NCBI GenBank assembly: GCA_023137275.1
Contig: JAGLPO010000040.1
Location: forward strand, 1 to 46,318
Reading direction: 5' to 3'
Length of the DNA stretch: 46,318 nt
DNA from: Candidatus Parcubacteria bacterium
Lineage (GTDB): Bacteria; Patescibacteriota; Patescibacteriia; Patescibacteriales; UBA12075
Under the pieces are notes generated by a model that was not told the DNA's origin, made no database searches, and was given only the letters and a program-made list of their open reading frames with translations. Numbering within the stretch: position 1 is the stretch's first letter; each line of letters starts with the position of its first letter. Positions 3,334 to 46,307 of this stretch are shown in pieces. The translations under genes were made by a program, and so were the position numbers.

Positions 3334-4608
3334 ATGGTTAAATATTTTTATAAAATTTTAGTTATTTCCTGTATTTGTTTGCTGATTTTTATAGTCGCGA
3401 TGTTTTTGTATTTGTTTTATGTCTCAGAAAATGATTTTGAGTTGAAAGAGCTGGTTGGAGAAACGAGGTTCTGGGAAGCGCAGAGTATTGACACTATGAA
3501 GTATTCGCGGGATCTGGCTCGGGAAAAGCAGGGGAACCAGGCTTTTTTAACGGTTATTGATAAGCAGGTTGGAAATATCGCGCAAACAGGGGCTACCCAT
3601 GTGGCAATCTGCACGCCTTATGACAAGGAGTTTACGTTGTTTCTTAAAAACTGGGTAGCGGCTGCCAGAAAGCATGATCTAAATGTTTGGTTTAGGGGTA
3701 ATTTTTCCGGTTGGGAACAATGGTTTGAGTATCCGCAAATCAGTCCGGAAATACATATCAGAAAAACAGAAGATTTTATAATAACTAATCCTGATTTGTT
3801 TGCGGATGGTGATATTTTTTCTTCTTGTCCGGAATGTGAGAACGGGGGGCCGGGCGACCCGCGCGCCACCGGCGACACCAAAGGCTTTAGAGATTTTTTA
3901 ATTAAAGAGAATAATATTGCAGAAGAAGCGTTTAAGAAAATTAACAAGCAAGTCGCTACTAATTATTTCTCCATGAACGGGGATGTGGCCAGACTGATAA
4001 TGGACAAAGACACTACCAGAGAATTAGGCAACATTATAACAATAGACCATTATGTGGCTACAGCAAAGAAGCTGGCCAGCGATATTAATGAAATCGCGCA
4101 AGCCGGCAACGGCAAAGTAGTGCTTGGCGAGATGGGCAGCCCGATCCCGGATATTCATGGCCATCAGACCGAAAGCGAGCAGGCTGAGTGGCTGAATGAG
4201 GCGCTGGAGAGATTGAGCAAAATTGATAATTTAGTCGGTATTAATTACTGGACCGGTGTTGGCGGCAGCACCAGGCTCTGGAATGATGATGGAAGCGCCA
4301 GGGAGGCGGCAGCCGTCCTGGCTAAGTATTTTCAGCCTAAGCAAATCCATGGCCGTGTTGTTGATGAACTGGGACGGCCAATAGAAAACGCAAGTATTTT
4401 ATTGGCTGACAAAATAATTATGAGTGACGCGCGCGGAGCTTTTTATACTCTTGCTGTTGTTGAAAAAAATGATAAAATAAAAGTGACCGTTCCCGGCTAT
4501 GATAATAAGACTATTAACTTTAATGATGATTTACTTAATATTAGCTTGAATAAAATAAATAAAGGCATAATTTATAGAGCATTATTGTATTTAAAATCAG
4601 CCCTTTAA
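3334..4608 (+). CDS. Membrane-anchored or secreted glycoside-hydrolase-like protein with a C-terminal carboxypeptidase-regulatory-like beta-sandwich
   Basis: ATG at 3334 is followed directly by a signal anchor (ILVISCICLLIFIVAMFLYLFYV). C-terminal HGRVVDELGRPIENASILL resembles the CarboxypepD_reg fold. The ORF track starts at GTG 3250 and reads through the heptamer repeat, which looks like a non-native extension. Confidence 0.55.
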   Translation: MVKYFYKILVISCICLLIFIVAMFLYLFYVSENDFELKELVGETRFWEAQSIDTMKYSRDLAREKQGNQAFLTVIDKQVGNIAQTGATHVAICTPYDKEFTLFLKNWVAAARKHDLNVWFRGNFSGWEQWFEYPQISPEIHIRKTEDFIITNPDLFADGDIFSSCPECENGGPGDPRATGDTKGFRDFLIKENNIAEEAFKKINKQVATNYFSMNGDVARLIMDKDTTRELGNIITIDHYVATAKKLASDINEIAQAGNGKVVLGEMGSPIPDIHGHQTESEQAEWLNEALERLSKIDNLVGINYWTGVGGSTRLWNDDGSAREAAAVLAKYFQPKQIHGRVVDELGRPIENASILLADKIIMSDARGAFYTLAVVEKNDKIKVTVPGYDNKTINFNDDLLNISLNKINKGIIYRALLYLKSAL

Positions 4609-5265: not shown

Positions 5266-6582
5266 ATGAAAAAACTTTTATTTTTATTGATTTTGGCGGT
5301 TGTTTTGACGCTGGCTGCCGGGGCGGTGGTGGTTGCCTCGGAAAAGGCGCAAAAAGACGAAATCAGGGTTTTTAACAATCTTGAAAAAAATAAAAACGCA
5401 AATGGCCCTAAATTTGTTCAAGACGAGATAATCGTTAAATTTAAGAATGACAACAAGCCATTTAGGGTTTTGAAAGTTCCTTATGGCCAGGTAAAAGAAA
5501 AGGTTAAAGAATACAAAGATAAAAAAGAAGTAGAATTTGTTGAACCGAATTATATTGCTAAAAGCTATATAGCTCCTAATGATCCGTTATATCCTTATCA
5601 ATGGCATTTTGACAACATTAATATGGAAGCAGCCTGGGATTTGGCCAGCGGAACCGGAATAACTGTTGCTGTGATTGATACTGGAATTACTCAGGGTCCG
5701 GATTTAGCTAATACTTGTTTTGAGGGTGGTTATGATTTTGTAAATGGTGATGGCGACGCTAGTGATGACAATGCTCACGGTACGCATGTGGCCGGAACAA
5801 TTGCTCAGCGCACTAACAACGGTGTGGGCGTTGCCGGCGTTGCCTATAACGCTTGTTTAATGCCAATCAAGGTTTTAGATTCAGGCGGTTCCGGAACTTA
5901 TGCTGATATTATCGCCGGTATTTATTATGCCGCTGATAATGGCGCTCACGTTATAAATATGAGTTTAGGAGGATCTTATGATTCGTATCTCATGGAGGAA
6001 GCTGTTGATTATGCTTATAATAAAGACGTTGTGATAGTGGCAGCTGCAGGAAATGACTACAGACAAAAGATTGGATATCCGGCCAGCTATAAGAATGTAA
6101 TAGCTGTAGGAGCAACCAGGTTTGATGATACTAAGGCAGCTTATTCCAATTATGGCAGGGATTTAGACATTGTAGCTCCTGGCGGAGATATGAACGTTGA
6201 TCAAAATGGAGATGGATATGGTGATGGAATTTTGCAAAACACTTTTGATCCAGACACAGGCGATTTTGGTTATTGGTTTTTTAATGGAACATCAATGGCA
6301 TCCCCTCATGTAGCTGGAGTAGCTGCTTTGATCCTTTCTCTTGATCCAAATTTAAGACCAATAGAGGTTCGCTCTATTTTAGAATCAAGTGCCTTAGACT
6401 TGGGAGCAACTGGCTGGGATAGGTATTATGGACACGGCCTTCTTGATGCTGAAGAGGCTTTGAATATGGTTAATAGCTCTCCAGATCCAGATCCAGAACC
6501 AGAACCAGAGTCTTATTGCGGTGATGGAGTATGCAATCGGCCAGAGGAAAGGAAAAAAACTTGCCCCGAAGACTGCGCGTAA
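5266..6582 (+). CDS. Secreted subtilisin-like serine protease (peptidase S8) with an acidic PD/PE linker and Cys-rich C-terminal tail
   Basis: Signal peptide. Catalytic motifs VAVIDTG (Asp), HGTHVAGTIA (His) and GTSMASPHVAG (Ser). Tail YCGDGVCNRPEERKKTCPEDC. Confidence 0.9.
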   Translation: MKKLLFLLILAVVLTLAAGAVVVASEKAQKDEIRVFNNLEKNKNANGPKFVQDEIIVKFKNDNKPFRVLKVPYGQVKEKVKEYKDKKEVEFVEPNYIAKSYIAPNDPLYPYQWHFDNINMEAAWDLASGTGITVAVIDTGITQGPDLANTCFEGGYDFVNGDGDASDDNAHGTHVAGTIAQRTNNGVGVAGVAYNACLMPIKVLDSGGSGTYADIIAGIYYAADNGAHVINMSLGGSYDSYLMEEAVDYAYNKDVVIVAAAGNDYRQKIGYPASYKNVIAVGATRFDDTKAAYSNYGRDLDIVAPGGDMNVDQNGDGYGDGILQNTFDPDTGDFGYWFFNGTSMASPHVAGVAALILSLDPNLRPIEVRSILESSALDLGATGWDRYYGHGLLDAEEALNMVNSSPDPDPEPEPESYCGDGVCNRPEERKKTCPEDCA

Positions 6583-18951: not shown

Positions 18952-21633
18952 ATGAAAAACCTCTCAAAATCAAGGGGGAGATTTTATAAAAAATTCGTGC
19001 AAGTTTTCAGTTTAACTGCGCTTGTGCTCAACATGTCGTTTATGGGCGTGTTTTTTATTGTCCCCGAGGCAGTGGCAACAGAGCCACAATGTACAAAAAC
19101 ATTAGATGAAGGATGTGGTGATTGTTATACAGATTTAATTTTAGGAGAGGAATGCGATAATGGCGAAGCTAATTGGCCAGAGGGGACCATGGATCCGGTT
19201 TGGGATTTTAATGAAGGTTATGGTGATAGAAATTATTGTTCCGATACCTGTTATATTTATCATGTGCCTGGAACTTGGTGCGGAGATGGGGAGGTTCAGG
19301 AATTAGATGAAGAATGTGAAGTTGATGAAGAATGTGATGAAGGGCAATATTGTGATGGATGTGTTTGTTATGATGAACCAGTATGTGATCCGTTGCCAGA
19401 AGATTGCACAAATCAAATTGATGACGACTGTGACTGTTTGATAGACTGTGACGATCCGGATTGTTCTGAGGATGATGCGTGTGTATGCCATGACGATGTT
19501 TATATTACAATTTATAAAGTTGAATGCAGCGATGAACAGTATTTGCCGAATTGGGGAGATGTTGAGCCGATTTTCGGCGAGCCGGACATGATTACTGCCA
19601 CTACTGCCGCAGATTATATAAACACTATTAATGATGCTAATGAATCTGAAGTGTGTTGGCTTGATGACGGTTGGGAATTTCAATGGGGCGACGCCACCAT
19701 GGAAAATCCAGGCAATAATATAGAATATGCAGAATATGCTAATGGTTGGAATACTGTTGGCCCTACGGTTGGCGGAGAAATTAGTTTTACAAGAGACAGT
19801 GATGCTAATCTTAAAATTCGGGAAGTAGTGCAAGACGGATATGTCCCATTCTCCGGCACTGAATCCGACGTGAGCGCGGAGATTTATTGTCATAACTATA
19901 TTGAGACTTACGATAACTACGCTCATTTGGACGAATGTGATAATGAGCTTACTTGGGGAGAAACATATTATTGCGTAGCTTTTAACGCGCCAGAACCGGA
20001 AGAAACAGCCACTGGCTCAATTACCATTATAAAAAGCACCAGCCAGGAGACCGGCATTGAATTTGAATTTTTTGGTGATTTAGGTGAATTCACACTTTCT
20101 GATGGCGAAAGCACTACAACCTCTGACTTAGCTACCGGCACTTATTATATATATGAAGATAATCTGCTGCCAGATTGGGATTTAACCGACATTGATTGCG
20201 GTGATGCCATTGTAGACCAGGCTGGCGATGGTGTGCACATTACTCTTGATGAAGGCGAAAATGCAACCTGCACCTTTTATAATACACATGAAACTTCACC
20301 GATTTCTACCGGCACGATCACAATCTGCAAACAGAATGACTTGAATGGCAATGGCGAACTTGAAGAAGGCGAGCCGTTTGTTGATGGCTGGTCATTCTAT
20401 ATGAATGATGTTCTATATACCGAGGACGGAAATTGCGTAGTTATTGATGATGTCCTATATGGCACCTATAATGTAACCGAAGTTATGCAAGAGGGCTGGA
20501 TTGCGACCGGCAAGACAGGCTCTTCTACGGGAAATGGCGTTTTTGAAAGCGACGGCTCTATTACTGTGACAGTAGGAAATTCAAATCCGGTTCCAATTGT
20601 TTATTTCCTTAATGCTGATAAAGATATTTGGGGCTGTAAATATAATGATGTTGATTCAGACGGACCGGCCGGAGAGGATTCAACTATTAGCGGTTGGACA
20701 ATTGAACTTTGGACATGCCCTTATCCTTTATTTGAAGTTCAAATCTCATCGGTTGATAATGGACCAATAGTAGGCGAGTGTCAAGTAGTTGATAGTACTA
20801 TTACTGGCGATGATGGATGTTATGCCTTTTATGGCCTGGGGAACGGAGGCCAATATCGGATAAAGGAAGTATTAAAAAGCAACTGGACACAAACTTATCC
20901 GACAAATCCAGATTATTATGATATGTGGTTAGGGGAAGATGAACCAATGAGTTATGATTTTTATAATCATAGCGATGATCCAACACCATACTGCGGCGAC
21001 GGCATGATAAATATGTGCGGAGAAGAATGTGATGATGGCAATAATGAAGATGGCGACGGCTGCAGCCATGATTGTAAGGAAGAAAGTAGCGGCGGCGGGA
21101 CCCTGTTCCCGACCAATCGCGGCGGCGGCTCAACCGGCCAGACATCCAGCCCGTCCACCCCGACAGTATTAGGCGAAGAAGGCGCTCCGGTTTTGGTCAT
21201 TAGCAAAACAGCAGATCAAGAATTCGTCAACATTGGCGATCAAGTAGAATATATAATTACTGTCACAAATAACGGCAACCTGACAGCTTTTGAAGTCAAT
21301 CTGGAAGACTTACTGCCAGAAGGTTTGGAATTTATTGACGACGAGTCAGCTTCCATGACCTGGGACCTGGGCGATATTTCCCCGGGCGTAAGCAAATCCG
21401 CGACTGTAATAGTCAAGGTTACCGGCGACATAACGATCGGCAAGATCACCAATACGGCCACTGCCGCGGCTGCCAACCATCCTATTGTGGAGGATTCGGT
21501 AGACGTGGAAGTAAGAGAGATCATGGTGCTGGCCGAATCAGGTTTTGACCTTAAAGAATTAATGCTAATGATCGGCAGTATTATCACTCTAATGGCGATA
21601 GCTCTCGGACTCAAACGCCGTTTACTGGTATAG
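18952..21633 (+). CDS. Large cell-surface protein: Cys/Asp-rich repeats, prealbumin/Cna-B-like domains, Myxococcus-type Cys-rich repeat, DUF11 repeat and a C-terminal sortase-type sorting signal
   Basis: Signal anchor. YCGDGMINMCGEECDDGNNEDGDGCSHDC. DUF11-like LVISKTADQEFVNIGDQVEYIITVTNNGN. C-terminus LAESG + hydrophobic helix + KRRLLV. Confidence 0.75.
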   Translation: MKNLSKSRGRFYKKFVQVFSLTALVLNMSFMGVFFIVPEAVATEPQCTKTLDEGCGDCYTDLILGEECDNGEANWPEGTMDPVWDFNEGYGDRNYCSDTCYIYHVPGTWCGDGEVQELDEECEVDEECDEGQYCDGCVCYDEPVCDPLPEDCTNQIDDDCDCLIDCDDPDCSEDDACVCHDDVYITIYKVECSDEQYLPNWGDVEPIFGEPDMITATTAADYINTINDANESEVCWLDDGWEFQWGDATMENPGNNIEYAEYANGWNTVGPTVGGEISFTRDSDANLKIREVVQDGYVPFSGTESDVSAEIYCHNYIETYDNYAHLDECDNELTWGETYYCVAFNAPEPEETATGSITIIKSTSQETGIEFEFFGDLGEFTLSDGESTTTSDLATGTYYIYEDNLLPDWDLTDIDCGDAIVDQAGDGVHITLDEGENATCTFYNTHETSPISTGTITICKQNDLNGNGELEEGEPFVDGWSFYMNDVLYTEDGNCVVIDDVLYGTYNVTEVMQEGWIATGKTGSSTGNGVFESDGSITVTVGNSNPVPIVYFLNADKDIWGCKYNDVDSDGPAGEDSTISGWTIELWTCPYPLFEVQISSVDNGPIVGECQVVDSTITGDDGCYAFYGLGNGGQYRIKEVLKSNWTQTYPTNPDYYDMWLGEDEPMSYDFYNHSDDPTPYCGDGMINMCGEECDDGNNEDGDGCSHDCKEESSGGGTLFPTNRGGGSTGQTSSPSTPTVLGEEGAPVLVISKTADQEFVNIGDQVEYIITVTNNGNLTAFEVNLEDLLPEGLEFIDDESASMTWDLGDISPGVSKSATVIVKVTGDITIGKITNTATAAAANHPIVEDSVDVEVREIMVLAESGFDLKELMLMIGSIITLMAIALGLKRRLLV

Positions 21634-21727
21634 AACCAAAAAAAACTCACCCGCGCCGGAGATTCATTCATTCAACCAATATTAGCTAGATATAAGCTTT
21701 AAAATTGAATAGATCCCCAAATTTATA

Positions 21728-21764
21728 AAAACCCCGCTTAGGCCAAGGCGGGGTTTGTTTATTT
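21728..21764 (+). terminator. Intrinsic terminator
   Basis: AACCCCGC...GCGGGGTTTGTTTATTT. Confidence 0.7.
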
Positions 21765-21848
21765 AAAAAACTTTAGACTCAAGCGCATGATTAATATTGC
21801 AGGAGATGCTAATTGTGTACTCAGGTCTAATACACTGCTATTTAACCT

Positions 21849-22091
21849 ATGTCGGAGATCGCTTACAAATATATCTGGCGGTGCGTCAAATGTGGCAGTC
21901 ATTTCGTTAATATTCACAAGGCGGACGGGGTGCTTAAACAGGAGAAAAAATGCTCTAAATGCAAGTCAGTCAACACGATCACGCTCACGGATAAAGAAAT
22001 TTATATACACTGCCGATTTTATGACCCGCAAAACAGCGGGTACCAGGAGGAATCCAGCGAAACTTATTCGTATCCTGTTATTGGCAGTTAA
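21849..22091 (+). CDS. Small zinc-ribbon protein (80 aa)
   Basis: CVKCG ... CSKCKS CxxC pairs. Preferred over the overlapping 21787..22128 frame, which is low-complexity and Arg/Ser-rich. No clear RBS. Confidence 0.4.
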   Translation: MSEIAYKYIWRCVKCGSHFVNIHKADGVLKQEKKCSKCKSVNTITLTDKEIYIHCRFYDPQNSGYQEESSETYSYPVIGS

Positions 22092-22118
22092 AAATCAAAA
22101 TTTACACATTTCATTTAT

Positions 22119-22322
22119 GTCATTCTGAGCCGCCCGTCTGACCGCGTTAGTCAGGCAGGTAGATGAAGAATCCCGTTGTGCCCCGTGTAAACGTAGTTTC
22201 TACCGGGGTGGATATAAAGACGAGATTCTTCACACGGCCTGATCATTCGCGGCCTCGCAGTGGCCCGCCTGCTTTCGCAGGCGAAGGGTGGTGGGTAGGG
22301 CCAGGCGGGCGCCCAGGATGAC
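22119..22322. other. GC-rich, multiply stem-looped non-coding element closed by a 12-bp stem
   Basis: GTCATTCTGAGC (22119-22130) pairs with GCCCAGGATGAC (22311-22322). Internal 9-bp stem 22164-22172 / 22224-22232. Hairpin CGCCTGC-TTTC-GCAGGCG competes with 22263-22271 / 22302-22310. GC content is far above its surroundings. Confidence 0.6.
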
Positions 22323-22334
22323 ACAAAAGATTTT

Positions 22335-22496
22335 AGAGGCTGTTTGAAAACCCCATTTTTACTGCAAATTCCAAATTTCGGCATAATTTTTTCTAAATTT
22401 TCTCGCCTATGCTTAGGCATAAGCTCAAAAATTTATAAAAAATTCTGCTCAAAATTTGAAATTTTCGTTACAAAAGCGGGTTTTCAAACAGCCTCT
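22335..22496. repeat. Long hairpin element E1 (19-bp perfect closing stem, 124-nt imperfectly palindromic interior)
   Basis: AGAGGCTGTTTGAAAACCC (22335-22353) is the exact reverse complement of 22478-22496. Apical hairpin TATGC-TTAG-GCATA at 22408-22421. Confidence 0.9.
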
Positions 22497-22561
22497 CAGA
22501 ACATCCAATATGTAAGCTATTTATTAACAATCTAAACACATTCGGGCATAAACGTATTTAG

Positions 22562-22687
22562 TATAATACATCAACGCCTCTTCGGAACAAGCTACTTCTT
22601 TTTGCGCGTTTTTAATTGATAATATTGCATTACGATTAAAATACACGCGCTTAAGGAGCGGCTGGTTCCGGGGAGGCGTATTTTTTT
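22562..22687 (+). ncRNA. Candidate small RNA or stand-alone terminator: TATAAT, ~105-nt rod-like hairpin, U7
   Basis: TATAAT at 22562-22567. ACGCCTCTTCGGAAC (22574-22588) pairs with GTTCCGGGGAGGCGT (22665-22679) using two G-U pairs. Inner GCGCGTTTTTAAT / ATTAAAA..ACGCGC helix. T7 at 22681-22687. Confidence 0.35.
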
Positions 22688-22725
22688 CCTTAGTTGTTAA
22701 CTAATTAATATATCCCGATAAGCAA

Positions 22726-22886
22726 TAGACTCACTGCACAATAAGTTTTGTAACGAAATTTTCAGATTTTGAGGCAAATTTTTTAAATAATTTTTGAGGT
22801 TTAGCCTAAGCTAAGCTGAAAAAATTTTTAGAAAATTTGACCAAAATATGGAAATTGCAGTAAAAAATTATTGTGCAGTGAGTCTA
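22726..22886. repeat. Long hairpin element E2 (19-bp perfect closing stem, interior homologous to E1 in the opposite orientation)
   Basis: TAGACTCACTGCACAATAA (22726-22744) is the exact reverse complement of 22868-22886. Extra outer 9-bp stem 22715-22723 / 22903-22911. Apical hairpin TTAGC-CTAA-GCTAA at 22801-22814. Confidence 0.9.
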
Positions 22887-23089
22887 ACAATAAAGATCCT
22901 CAGCTTATCGGCGCAATTTAAAGGTCGACTTTAAGCATTGCTTGAAGAAATATATTATTCCTTATTGCTTCCTGAAAATTCAGGGATTAACAAGGATTAT
23001 TAGGAGGAAAAATTAATATTAATATTAATTATTAAAGATAGCTATTTAATTTATTTTTAAATTAAATTAAATAGCGTCAAAAAAATCCT

Positions 23090-23821
23090 ATGTTTAAGAA
23101 GCTTACAATGGTAGTGGCAATCGTATTTATGTTTGCCTTTACCCTAACTCCGGCTTTGGCTGGCGACATGACCATGGTAATGAACGACAATGAAGGCGCG
23201 GCCGCTAATCTTGTCGGCGCCGAGGCCAATACCGGCGGTAATTACGCGGGCGGCAGCTATGCCGGCGACGGCGGCGACGGCGGTGATATGAAGAACAGCG
23301 GTACTGACATTGAAGACAGCTCTACCGGGGCAGGCGGCAATGGCGGCAGTTCCGGGGAAGGCGGGGCCGTAATTACCGGCGACGCTGACGCAAAGGCGGC
23401 CGGTGTAAATTTGGTTAATACCAACTACACGGAAGTTGACGATTGCGCCTGTGAAGATGAAGAGGAAGAGAACGGCGCAGTTGACAGTCAGCTGGATGGA
23501 CCGGGACCGGGACCGGGACCGGGAATGTGCTGCGGCGATAAAGTTATTGTGCGCAACCACAATCGCCATCTGGGCGAGAACATGGTCGGCGCTCGCGCCA
23601 ACACCGGTGAAAACATGGCTGATGGCAGTGAAGCCGGTTACGGCGGTGAAGGCGGTGAGATGAAGAATAAGGATGGAGAAGATATTGAAAGAAGCCACAC
23701 TGGCGCCGGTGGAACCGGCGGCAACAGCGGCGTGGGCGGTTATGTTGAAACCGGCCGGTCTGACTCGCGGGCTCTTGGCGTAAATATTCTGGGCACCAAT
23801 ATTACCCGGATCAGAAGGTAG
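23090..23821 (+). CDS. Secreted Gly/Asp-rich protein with two ANTGxN...TGD modules joined by a Cys-rich acidic linker
   Basis: Signal peptide. Repeated N.NEGAA.NLV.AEANTGGNYAGGSYAGDGGDGGDMKN...IEDSSTGAGGNGGSSGEGGAVITGDA...NLVNTNYT. Linker DDCACEDEEEE...PGPGPGPGMCCGD. Ends NITRIRR. Confidence 0.7.
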   Translation: MFKKLTMVVAIVFMFAFTLTPALAGDMTMVMNDNEGAAANLVGAEANTGGNYAGGSYAGDGGDGGDMKNSGTDIEDSSTGAGGNGGSSGEGGAVITGDADAKAAGVNLVNTNYTEVDDCACEDEEEENGAVDSQLDGPGPGPGPGMCCGDKVIVRNHNRHLGENMVGARANTGENMADGSEAGYGGEGGEMKNKDGEDIERSHTGAGGTGGNSGVGGYVETGRSDSRALGVNILGTNITRIRR

Positions 23822-39695: not shown

Positions 39696-40262
39696 ATGTC
39701 TAATATCACTAAAAGAATAGTAAAATTAGCAATTTCAAAAAAATCGGTTTTCACTACCGATGAATTGGCTTTGGCATGGAAAATTACAAACAAAAATGTT
39801 TTGCGGGTAACAATTAACAGAAGCATTAAAAATAATTTTCTTAAAAAAATCAGAAGAGGAATTTATTCATTGGACAAAAAAGAAATCAATGTTTTTGAGT
39901 TAGCCTGCAAACTTAAAAAAAGGTCATATATCAGTTTTGAAACAGTATTAAGCCAAGAGGGAATAATATTTCAATGGCAAGATAAAATATTTTTAGCCAG
40001 CGACAGGACGTCAGAGATAAAAAATAAGCAAGGGAAATTTGTTTATAAAAAAATACCTGATAAAGCATTATATAATAATGACGGAATAATTAATAAAAAA
40101 AATTATTTTATTGCCACCAAAGAAAGGGCATTGTGCGACAAAATATATAAAGACGGTATAAGCTATTTTGATGATTTATCAGGGATAGATAGAAAAAAAA
40201 TATTTAGAATAGCCAGGCTTTATAATAAAAGGCTGGAAAGAGATATTAAAAAAATATTATGA
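39696..40262 (+). CDS. abiEi: AbiEi-like antitoxin / transcriptional regulator (type IV TA, abortive-infection AbiE family)
   Basis: N-terminal wHTH-like VFTTDELALAWKI...NFLKKIRRGIYSL. 4-nt overlap (ATGA) with the downstream AbiEii-like gene. Confidence 0.55.
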   Translation: MSNITKRIVKLAISKKSVFTTDELALAWKITNKNVLRVTINRSIKNNFLKKIRRGIYSLDKKEINVFELACKLKKRSYISFETVLSQEGIIFQWQDKIFLASDRTSEIKNKQGKFVYKKIPDKALYNNDGIINKKNYFIATKERALCDKIYKDGISYFDDLSGIDRKKIFRIARLYNKRLERDIKKIL

Positions 40263-40981
40263 GAATAGATAAAGAAAAACATAAAAAAATAATGCTGAGC
40301 ATATTGGCGGATATTTCCAAAGATCCCGAGTTATCTGTTAATCTTGGCTTTAAAGGCGGTACCTGCTGTTATTTTGTTTATGGTTTGGATAGATTTTCCG
40401 TAGATTTGGATTTTGATTTGCTGGACGCGGGAAAAAAAGATTTGGTTTTAAAAAAAATGGATGAATTATTAAAAAAATACGGAACAATTAAAAAAGAAAG
40501 CAAAGAATCGCGCGTAAAATTAAAATATTCAGATGACAGCAGCGCTTTAAAGATTGATATTTCATCAAGAGATGAATTAAATCGTTTAAATAGCTATGAA
40601 ATTACAGATATTGTATCAGGCGTTCCCTTGAATATATTAAAACAAGAAGATATGTTCGCGCACAAGCTTGTGGCAGTTAAAGATAGATTTGAAAATAAAT
40701 CAGCAAATAAAATAATCGCTAATAGGGATATTTATGATATAAATTTTTTCTTTAATAAAAATTGGGGGATTAATTATGAGATAGTAGCGCTTAGAAGAAA
40801 AAAAGACGCGAAATTATATTTTAAAGAATTAATGGAATTCATAAAAAAGAATGTTGATAATAAAAATATTTTAGACGGGATTGGGGCTTTGGTCAGTGAT
40901 GAAAAAAGAAAATGGGTAAAAAATGAATTAAAAAATGAAGTTATCAAACAATTGGCTATTCAAATTAAGTCAATGGAGTAA
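40259..40981 (+). CDS. abiEii: AbiEii/AbiGii-family nucleotidyltransferase toxin (DUF1814)
   Basis: FKGGTCCYFVYGLDRFSVDLDFD matches the GG[TS]...R.S.D[IL]DF nucleotidyltransferase signature of AbiEii. Confidence 0.65.
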   Translation: MRIDKEKHKKIMLSILADISKDPELSVNLGFKGGTCCYFVYGLDRFSVDLDFDLLDAGKKDLVLKKMDELLKKYGTIKKESKESRVKLKYSDDSSALKIDISSRDELNRLNSYEITDIVSGVPLNILKQEDMFAHKLVAVKDRFENKSANKIIANRDIYDINFFFNKNWGINYEIVALRRKKDAKLYFKELMEFIKKNVDNKNILDGIGALVSDEKRKWVKNELKNEVIKQLAIQIKSME

Positions 40982-46216: not shown

Positions 46217-46307
46217 AAAGTTATTATTAACATAATTTAAACAAAAACGAGGATAAAAACAAGTTTTATCTTAGCGTTTTTGTTTAAATTATGTTAATTA
46301 TAACTTT
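46217..46307. repeat. 91-nt hairpin with a ~33-bp stem (one mismatch) downstream of rpsB
   Basis: 46217-46249 pairs with 46275-46307, checked base by base. The right arm continues into a 22-nt sequence also present at 9-30. Confidence 0.85.

Follow-up and report, generated by a model that had tools for sequence, protein, structure and literature searches.

In prokaryotes, miniature inverted-repeat transposable elements, or MITEs, measure less than 500 bp, have an AT-rich sequence, carry terminal inverted repeats (TIRs) of 4–30 bp and direct repeats that fade with age, have AT-rich intergenic targets, and give transcripts that form stable stem-loops (PMC10969869). The Correia elements of Neisseria (CREE/NEMIS) are non-coding, intergenic units of 100–160 bp with TIRs of about 26 bp and a short AT target duplication; the whole element forms a hairpin, and RNase III cuts its transcripts where the TIRs pair (PMC10969869). 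Small foldbacks with TIRs of about 20–25 bp also occur among MITEs of the IS630/Tc1-mariner type, namely RUP of S. pneumoniae and the eukaryotic Stowaway, and the Tourist-like MITEs of the IS5/PIF-Harbinger type have an AT-rich 3-bp target duplication (TNA/TWA). In Correia elements, several end and core variants combine as a mosaic. The present analysis concerns contig JAGLPO010000040.1 of a Candidatus Parcubacteria bacterium (46,318 nt, hereafter the window), in which two rods of about 160 nt, E1 and E2, stand upstream of a surface-protein operon. E1 and E2 are very probably copies from two subfamilies of a non-autonomous foldback transposable element, that is, a MITE family, and are most likely passive insertions at this place. 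The family is closest in kind to the Correia elements and to MITEs of the RUP/Stowaway or Tourist type.

E1 (22335–22496) and E2 (22726–22886) are complete foldback elements of 161–162 bp lying on opposite strands. E1, of the GAGGCTG/AGAG arm subfamily, has the standard orientation (5′-arm-TTTTTACTGCAA...TTTCGTTACAAAA-arm-3′) on the forward strand, and E2, of the TAGAC arm subfamily, has it on the reverse strand. The coordinates and the perfect 19-bp stems given in a first-pass annotation made from the sequence alone were reproduced: in E1 the left TIR AGAGGCTGTTTGAAAACCC (22335–22353) pairs perfectly with 22478–22496, and in E2 the repeat TAGACTCACTGCACAATAA (22726–22744) pairs perfectly with 22868–22886. 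Inside the arms, E1 contains the left subterminal motif TTTTTACTGCAA (22356–22367), an apical hairpin TATGC-TTAG-GCATA (22408–22421) and the right subterminal motif TTTCGTTACAAAA (22463–22475); on the reverse strand of E2, the corresponding parts are TTTCGTTACAAAA at 22746–22758, TTAGC-TTAG-GCTAA at 22801–22814 and TTTTTACTGCAA at 22855–22866. The inverted homology of the two interiors also holds, with 81% identity between the end motifs and about 83% over the whole alignment when E2 is reverse-complemented, and each of the blocks TTTTTACTGCAA, TTTCGTTACAAAA and GCTTAGGC is found in both; the alignment breaks down exactly where the arms begin. The proposed folding into long rods is likewise borne out, the stability being far above that of shuffled sequences for E1 and E2 both as RNA (z = −12.4 and −10.0) and as DNA (z = −11.6 and −12.5). 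No reading frame is conserved: the sole open reading frame (ORF) of the E1 region, 22344–22535 (63 aa), is without a Pfam match and is not kept in E2. E1 and E2 contain no tRNA and have no Rfam match at the gathering score; a permissive threshold brings up nothing but generic long-hairpin plant MIR models, with scores far under their cut-offs.

That E2 is an insertion is seen from contig L069, which comes from a sister sample and was found by protein search. The VWA gene lying downstream of E2 has an 85%-identical orthologue on it, and collinearity with the window extends over 22589–22724 (94% identity) and 22889–23200 (91%). It lacks exactly the 161 bp of E2, the interval missing between these two segments being 22726–22888. 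Since E2 is missing exactly from this contig, its arms were inserted along with the rest and do not stem from the target; that is to say, the unit of insertion is the whole hairpin including its arms. Target-derived arms, or insertion into an existing palindrome, were considered and rejected: the arms travel with the element, the arm sequences of E1 and E2 have no other occurrence within the 46-kb window, and there are no palindromes that consist of arms only. E2 landed in the AT-rich loop of a 9-bp host hairpin (CCGATAAGC, 22715–22723, and GCTTATCGG, 22903–22911), which is intact in L069 at about 129–165. Hairpin-loop targeting as a general rule was rejected, because true flank pairs (−4.04 kcal/mol) show no excess complementarity over mismatched ones (−4.15 kcal/mol). 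For the E1 region, the comparison is with distant relatives (L071–L073), in which the block equivalent to 22544–22690 begins about 33 nt after an 80-aa ORF; in the window it begins about 450 nt after this ORF, the surplus of about 420 nt being a GC-rich block and E1. The recG locus gave no second empty site: the relative with 99% identity there contains the element, and synteny is already lost in the next one.

The ends of the element are sharply defined. When anchored on the motifs, arm pairing spans 21 positions and ends abruptly at the 22nd in all subfamilies. The tip consensus is A (29/37), G (28/37), A or C, and C (26/37), with its complement at the other end (AGAC/AGAG...GTCT/CTCT), and the two positions beyond each end are almost always A or T. 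In the TAGAC subfamily, where the element is AGAC...GTCT, the same flanking triplet (AAT or ATT) stands on both sides in 12 of 19 independent insertions, against a mean of 6.8 expected by chance from mismatched flank pairs (p = 0.006); the inverted type accounts for 2 only. E2 proper is probably 22727–22885, and its flank triplets are AAT (22724–22726) and AAC (22886–22888), which form a putative target-site duplication with one mismatch under the 3-bp AWT model and the L069 empty site. The pre-insertion sequence given by this model, GCAATAATAAAGATCC, differs from the L069 sequence GCATAATAAATATCC by one 1-nt indel and one substitution, and a 3-bp duplication fits L069 better than a TA duplication or none. 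TA...TA bounds 17 of the 19 TAGAC-type copies, where it is not distinguishable from part of the inverted repeat; in the E1 type, TA is confined to one side. Copies land in intergenic DNA rich in A and T, and those of the TAGAC subfamily putatively duplicate 3 bp (AWT) of it.

Further copies were collected by scanning the GTDB species genomes and the JGI metagenomes with the exact pattern TTTACTGCAA N90–115 TTCGTTACAAA, which returned 28 stretches (about 17 real) and 38 stretches (about 30 real), respectively. An nhmmer profile search of the collected loci added divergent copies, so that the family amounts to about 58 copies in 28 subfamilies (clusters at 93% identity). The hosts are mostly Patescibacteria (Parcubacteria/Paceibacterota, Falkowbacteria, Komeilibacteria and Berkelbacteria), and other bins are labelled Bacteroidales, Flavobacterium, Gammaproteobacteria and Pirellulales, with Bacteroidota and Planctomycetota among the phyla. 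Copies amplify within genomes with their arms intact: MAG021 contains at least 5 near-identical copies with the same arms (TAGACTTGTCGCGTAATTA) at unrelated sites, and the Ga0209542 metagenome contains at least 10 with the same arms (TAGACTTGTCCCTTAATAA), two of which share one contig. No third copy was found in the window. All members share an architecture of arms of about 21 bp, two motifs just inside them, a rod-like, imperfectly palindromic core of about 95–115 nt and a small apical hairpin with the family-wide consensus GTAGC-N4-GCTAC (flanks TC... and ...CTC). The subterminal motif pair TTTTTACTGCAA/TTTCGTTACAAA is conserved, asymmetric and at a constant distance from the tip, its invariance being partly an artefact because the two motifs served as the search query.

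The copies are intergenic, their median distance to the adjacent ORFs being about 33 nt, apart from one copy in a 23S rRNA gene on L049. Between tandem genes, 9 copies are oriented opposite to the genes and 5 in the same direction, and convergent and divergent cases also exist. Across the examined loci, no protein family recurs beside the copies, and none of them adjoins a gene for a transposase, recombinase or reverse transcriptase. Carriage by phages or plasmids was rejected, since no copies were found on viral contigs and there were no plasmid BLAST matches. In one locus, L018, a Flavobacterium-type copy has, at a distance of 3 nt, a Flavo-1 RNA (Rfam RF01705, 5345–5426, 52.9 bits); an association was rejected, as it is seen in L018 only and at none of five other Flavobacterium-type copies, and the adjacency is probably coincidental.

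Sister foldback elements of 170–210 nt with perfect 20–26-bp arms (e.g., TATAGACAYCRCATCCGTTAA.., TAGATAAAACATTCCAGAATCGGACT, GGGACTGTCGCCAAACACCGC and ..CTTGAATTACGAAA..) are found on the same contigs: L043:4300–4530 and 4010–4220, L054:1090–1320, L037:5460–5640 and 2360–2540, L051:1890–2100, and L020:4600–4840. In these the two motifs are missing or variant, the apical GTAGC-N4-GCTAC is shared, and the core is shared sometimes. Together with the E1/E2 family they form a larger superfamily. The E1/E2 family itself is previously undescribed, not being found in Rfam or in the searchable literature: literature searches gave no description of a MITE family in Patescibacteria, motif and arm sequences used as search strings gave irrelevant matches only, and a 2024 review of prokaryotic MITEs does not mention Patescibacteria (PMC10969869).

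The relation between arms and cores accounts for the unusual look of the pair E1/E2. The two arms had been described as sharing nothing; in register, however, 8 of 19 positions are identical (the tip AG.CT, then TG.A.A), and both lie on a continuum of related arms, so that the "unrelated" arms are diverged TIRs. Across 27 representatives, all 21 arm pairs have changed on both sides, and arm cells are paired in 86% of cases versus 36–43% when the partner is slid; pairing of the core is kept too, with 36 of 66 pairs changed on both sides. Between E2 and the MAG021 copies the core is 91–92% identical and the arms 63%, as 7 of 19 positions differ and all 7 are compensated. Similarity of arms and of cores is loosely correlated (r = 0.57), with clear discordant cases. 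The AT-rich core with the TTAGC apex is found on at least four arm types (TAGAC..., the GAGGCTG... of E1, GGCACTATCACC... in L032 and GGAACTTTTTTC... in L049), E1-like arms (76% identical) surround a core that is 57% identical in L035, and TAGACTTGT arms are found around two different cores. Local gene conversion between E1 and E2 was rejected as the source of their similar cores, because the E1 core is equally close to E2 (81%) and to copies in other genomes (80%). By these comparisons, arms and cores are modules reassorted between subfamilies, most simply at the conserved motifs.

Since reassortment of arms and interiors is a general property of the family, the same interior can be found in E1 and E2 with different arms, and the pattern that the first-pass annotation called the reverse of a MITE arose because two subfamilies with reassorted arms and interiors were compared. 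That description has to be withdrawn: further copies with arms conserved within each subfamily, a putative target-site duplication and an empty site have all been found. Concerning the apical hairpin, the compensation between TATGC/GCATA and TTAGC/GCTAA stands, with two clean changes in place of the three counted before. The related proposal of selection on secondary structure survives in part, in that pairing is kept through massive two-sided change in arms and interior; a constraint on the foldback structure, in single-stranded DNA (ssDNA) or RNA, is plausible and is here inseparable from co-evolution of the TIRs with a transposase.

Compared with the described systems, the E1/E2 family agrees with prokaryotic MITEs in its size, lack of coding capacity, TIR length, dispersed copies with shared ends, insertion polymorphism (E2), AT-rich composition and intergenic target, and stable stem-loop. 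It resembles the Correia elements in its approximate size, lack of coding capacity, TIRs, putative short AT target duplication, intergenic position, folding of the whole element and mosaic combination of ends and cores, and differs in that there is no sequence similarity, in that Correia elements belong to one genus whereas this family extends over several classes of Patescibacteria and other phyla, and in that its arms vary much more, against a conserved apex and a conserved pair of 12-nt subterminal motifs. With the IS630-type MITEs it shares the small foldback form, the TIR length and, in the TAGAC subfamily, bounds of TA...TA in AT-rich DNA; on the other hand, flanks and empty site agree better with duplication of 3 bp (AWT), the E1 type is without TA on one side, and no IS630-type transposase with the ends of this family is found in the window or the examined loci. 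The putative AT-rich 3-bp target duplication is like that of the Tourist-like MITEs, but the triplet here is AWT and not TWA, and no transposase of that type has been identified. REPINs are also hairpin-forming, non-coding, intergenic and multi-copy, with a length of about 100 nt and compensatory change that keeps the pairing (PMC3116915). However, they are composed of two short GC-rich REPs, have no signature of TIRs plus target duplication and descend vertically together with one RAYT gene, unlike the AT-rich rods described here with their conserved tip, putative duplication and cross-phylum spread; no RAYT (TnpA_REP) gene lies near any copy in the examined loci, whole genomes not having been searched. 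As for the intervening sequences of 23S rRNA that are removed by RNase III, the L049 member is alike in being part of a 391-nt stem-closed insertion in a 23S helix loop, and unlike them in being 1 of about 58 copies, E1 and E2 themselves being intergenic.

In the mechanism proposed for the MITE family, the element would be mobilised in trans by a DDE-type transposase whose gene lies in another part of the genome or has been lost since; the enzyme would bind the terminal repeats plus the subterminal motif and move the element by cut-and-paste. At the conserved motifs, recombination or template switching would probably create new combinations of arms and cores. It has been reported that a 24-bp TIR is sufficient in cis for an IS630-type transposase (PMC2170065), and the arm length of the family matches this repeat. 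As to the type of enzyme, the TA-bounded ends may point to IS630/Tc1-mariner, and the 3-bp duplication together with the GAG-initial arms may point to IS5/Harbinger-like enzymes, whose GAG- or GG-initial terminal repeats we take to resemble the E1-type arms. A transcript crossing an inserted element would fold into a rod of about 75 bp that is structurally self-contained and likely an RNase III substrate, and because of this the copies could be tolerated in tight intergenic spacers and in a 23S rRNA helix loop.

Several observations weigh against this MITE interpretation. The empty site at nucleotide level is a single one (L069), with small indels at the junction. E1-type copies are without a clear target duplication, as is expected of older insertions (PMC10969869). 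The divergent copies found by the profile search carry variant motifs, for example TTCTACTGCAA, TTTCGTCGCAA and TTTCGCTGCGAA. The examined loci, about 450 kb, contain no autonomous element and no transposase whose ends match, and the search for an autonomous partner through orphan half-sites, long-range inverted repeats and recurrent ORFs was negative throughout that DNA. Moreover, there are few wobble intermediates in arms and core, and the fast, fully compensated change of the arms is explained more easily by constraint on, or repair of, a folded single strand than by simple decay of TIRs. The compensated arm turnover, the asymmetric motifs and the conserved apex sit less comfortably with the MITE model.

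These last features are the ones which would be expected of a hairpin-dependent ssDNA element moved by an HUH/Y1-like enzyme on the folded strand, as in REP/REPIN-RAYT or IS200/IS605, a reading that we consider unlikely. Such an enzyme would recognise the apical GTAGC hairpin together with the conserved asymmetric internal loops beside the arms, and would cut at a measured distance of about 21 bp; the arm sequence would be free to vary provided that pairing is kept. In agreement with this, arm pairing survives change at every one of the 21 positions, the arm length from the motif is fixed, at least four unrelated arm types occur on one core, and the apex is kept in all subfamilies and even in the motif-less sister families. 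In addition, one strand, reading 5′-TTTGTAACGAAA...TTGCAGTAAAAA-3′, folds better by 10–20 kcal/mol in 23 of 28 subfamily representatives, and on it the left/right asymmetry of the motifs is kept, an identical pair of small internal loops being predicted from them for each subfamily. However, the 3-bp direct duplication and the conserved tip are hallmarks of DDE enzymes, elements of the HUH/Y1 type having neither duplication nor TIRs; the excess of G.T over A.C mismatches is weak and subfamily-dependent (27 versus 13), and no HUH gene stands beside any copy. If mobility did depend on a structure-reading enzyme that recognises the loops and the apical hairpin and cuts at a fixed distance of about 21 bp, for which we see a small chance, then the 21-bp arms would be freely exchangeable, perfect pairing would be kept by repair within the foldback, and spread across phyla and harmless residence in structured RNAs such as 23S rRNA would be accounted for.

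Still less probable is a structured non-coding RNA gene or RNA-level module, of RNase III or terminator type, that is copied around the genome. The folds are very stable, covariation is strong in arms and core, Correia-type MITE transcripts are known RNase III substrates (PMC10969869), and the L049 copy, being sense-oriented in the 23S rRNA gene, must be tolerated or removed as RNA. But covariation supports a hairpin structure that is equally expected of TIRs and palindromic DNA and does not discriminate, genomes differ in copy number (2 to at least 10) and show insertion polymorphism, and further points against a structured RNA gene are that there is no consistent strand or preferred orientation relative to flanking genes, no match to a curated RNA family in Rfam, and no promoter or terminator signal above chance. 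The modest, subfamily-dependent wobble excess was rejected as proof of an RNA, and together with the variable orientation to genes makes a strand-specific RNA gene unlikely. The probability is lowest, and very low, for an invertible or structure-gated promoter switch, in which E1, E2 or the 229-bp segment between them would flip and control the surface-protein operon, as the first-pass annotation had suggested from the mutual inversion of E1 and E2 upstream of this operon. The promoter TTGACC-18-TAAAAA on which the suggestion drew was not called in a promoter scan of 21600–23150, where promoter-like sites number 3 versus 5.0 expected and terminator signals are at chance level. An inverton was rejected for want of a site-specific recombinase in the 46 kb, and the near-palindromic interiors would be nearly unchanged by inversion. 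In three assemblies and in relatives the segment 22497–22725 has one and the same orientation, L069 keeps the operon and its 200-nt upstream region without E2, and family members elsewhere sit between unrelated genes.

Three further candidates were discarded. Integron attC sites need a conserved R″/R′ (RYYYAAC/GTTRRRY) at the hairpin base, which is here the variable part; they also form same-orientation arrays, in contrast to the opposite orientation of E1 and E2, and no integrase is present in the window. A retron msr/msd was excluded because there is no reverse transcriptase in the window or adjoining the copies, and a hammerhead-like apex because the window and 18 loci gave no Rfam ribozyme match. 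The L049 insertion is a case of its own: 391 nt (5797–6187) are inserted in the 23S rRNA gene, at the loop that ends a domain V helix (Rfam LSU position about 2238), and fold into a closing stem bearing two long hairpins, the second of which is a decayed family member (core 5858–5976) in the sense orientation of the rRNA.

The window itself belongs to a low-GC genome (about 35% GC) and has a single coding strand, with genes for glycosyltransferases, DUF11/VWA surface proteins, a sortase, an AbiEii toxin, MnmA and ribosomal protein S2; its small proteins have homologues that carry Patescibacteria labels. The first-pass remark that no recombinase, reverse transcriptase or nuclease is encoded nearby holds for the whole 46 kb, which is also without a transposase. 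Immediately upstream of E1, a GC-rich block (about 60% GC, 22119–22322, from GTCATTCTGAG to CCCAGGATGAC) seems to be a member of a different small GC-rich hairpin repeat family; similar repeats are found in L046 (7331–7527 and 9792–10028) and L073 (about 1640–1990), and the block is missing from the equivalent place in L071–L073. The conserved non-coding block 22544–22690 between E1 and E2 carries a TATAAT-like sequence between two CATnAACG boxes, followed by a hairpin AACGCCTC...GAGGCGT and a T-run. Its homologues stand right after the small ORF in L071/L072 (about 1343–1440) and L073; a small RNA is one possibility for it, an operator with a terminator another. The conserved 80-aa ORF (21849–22091) has 14 homologues with 52–73% identity, one of which is labelled "phage FluMu protein Com" by one source, and is the real gene of this place, in preference to the overlapping 113-aa ORF (21787–22128), which is without any record. 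Elsewhere, a hairpin downstream of rpsB (46217–46307; 33-nt arms, 97% complementary, 25-nt loop) is unrelated in sequence to E1/E2. In the region 39696–40981, the AbiEii-type nucleotidyltransferase toxin (40259–40981) and the overlapping 188-aa ORF before it, which is without a Pfam match, are probably a type IV toxin-antitoxin pair.

For the window, the message is that E1 and E2 are to be read as insertions and not as regulators of the surface-protein operon. In very small genomes with few obvious transposases, the family is a marker of recent mobile-DNA activity; it is easy to recognise, and broken assemblies and spurious ORFs are probably among its effects. The modular exchange between arms and cores, the spread across phyla and the copy in a 23S rRNA gene are useful leads to the mobilising enzyme and to the rRNA insertions of the candidate phyla radiation (CPR).

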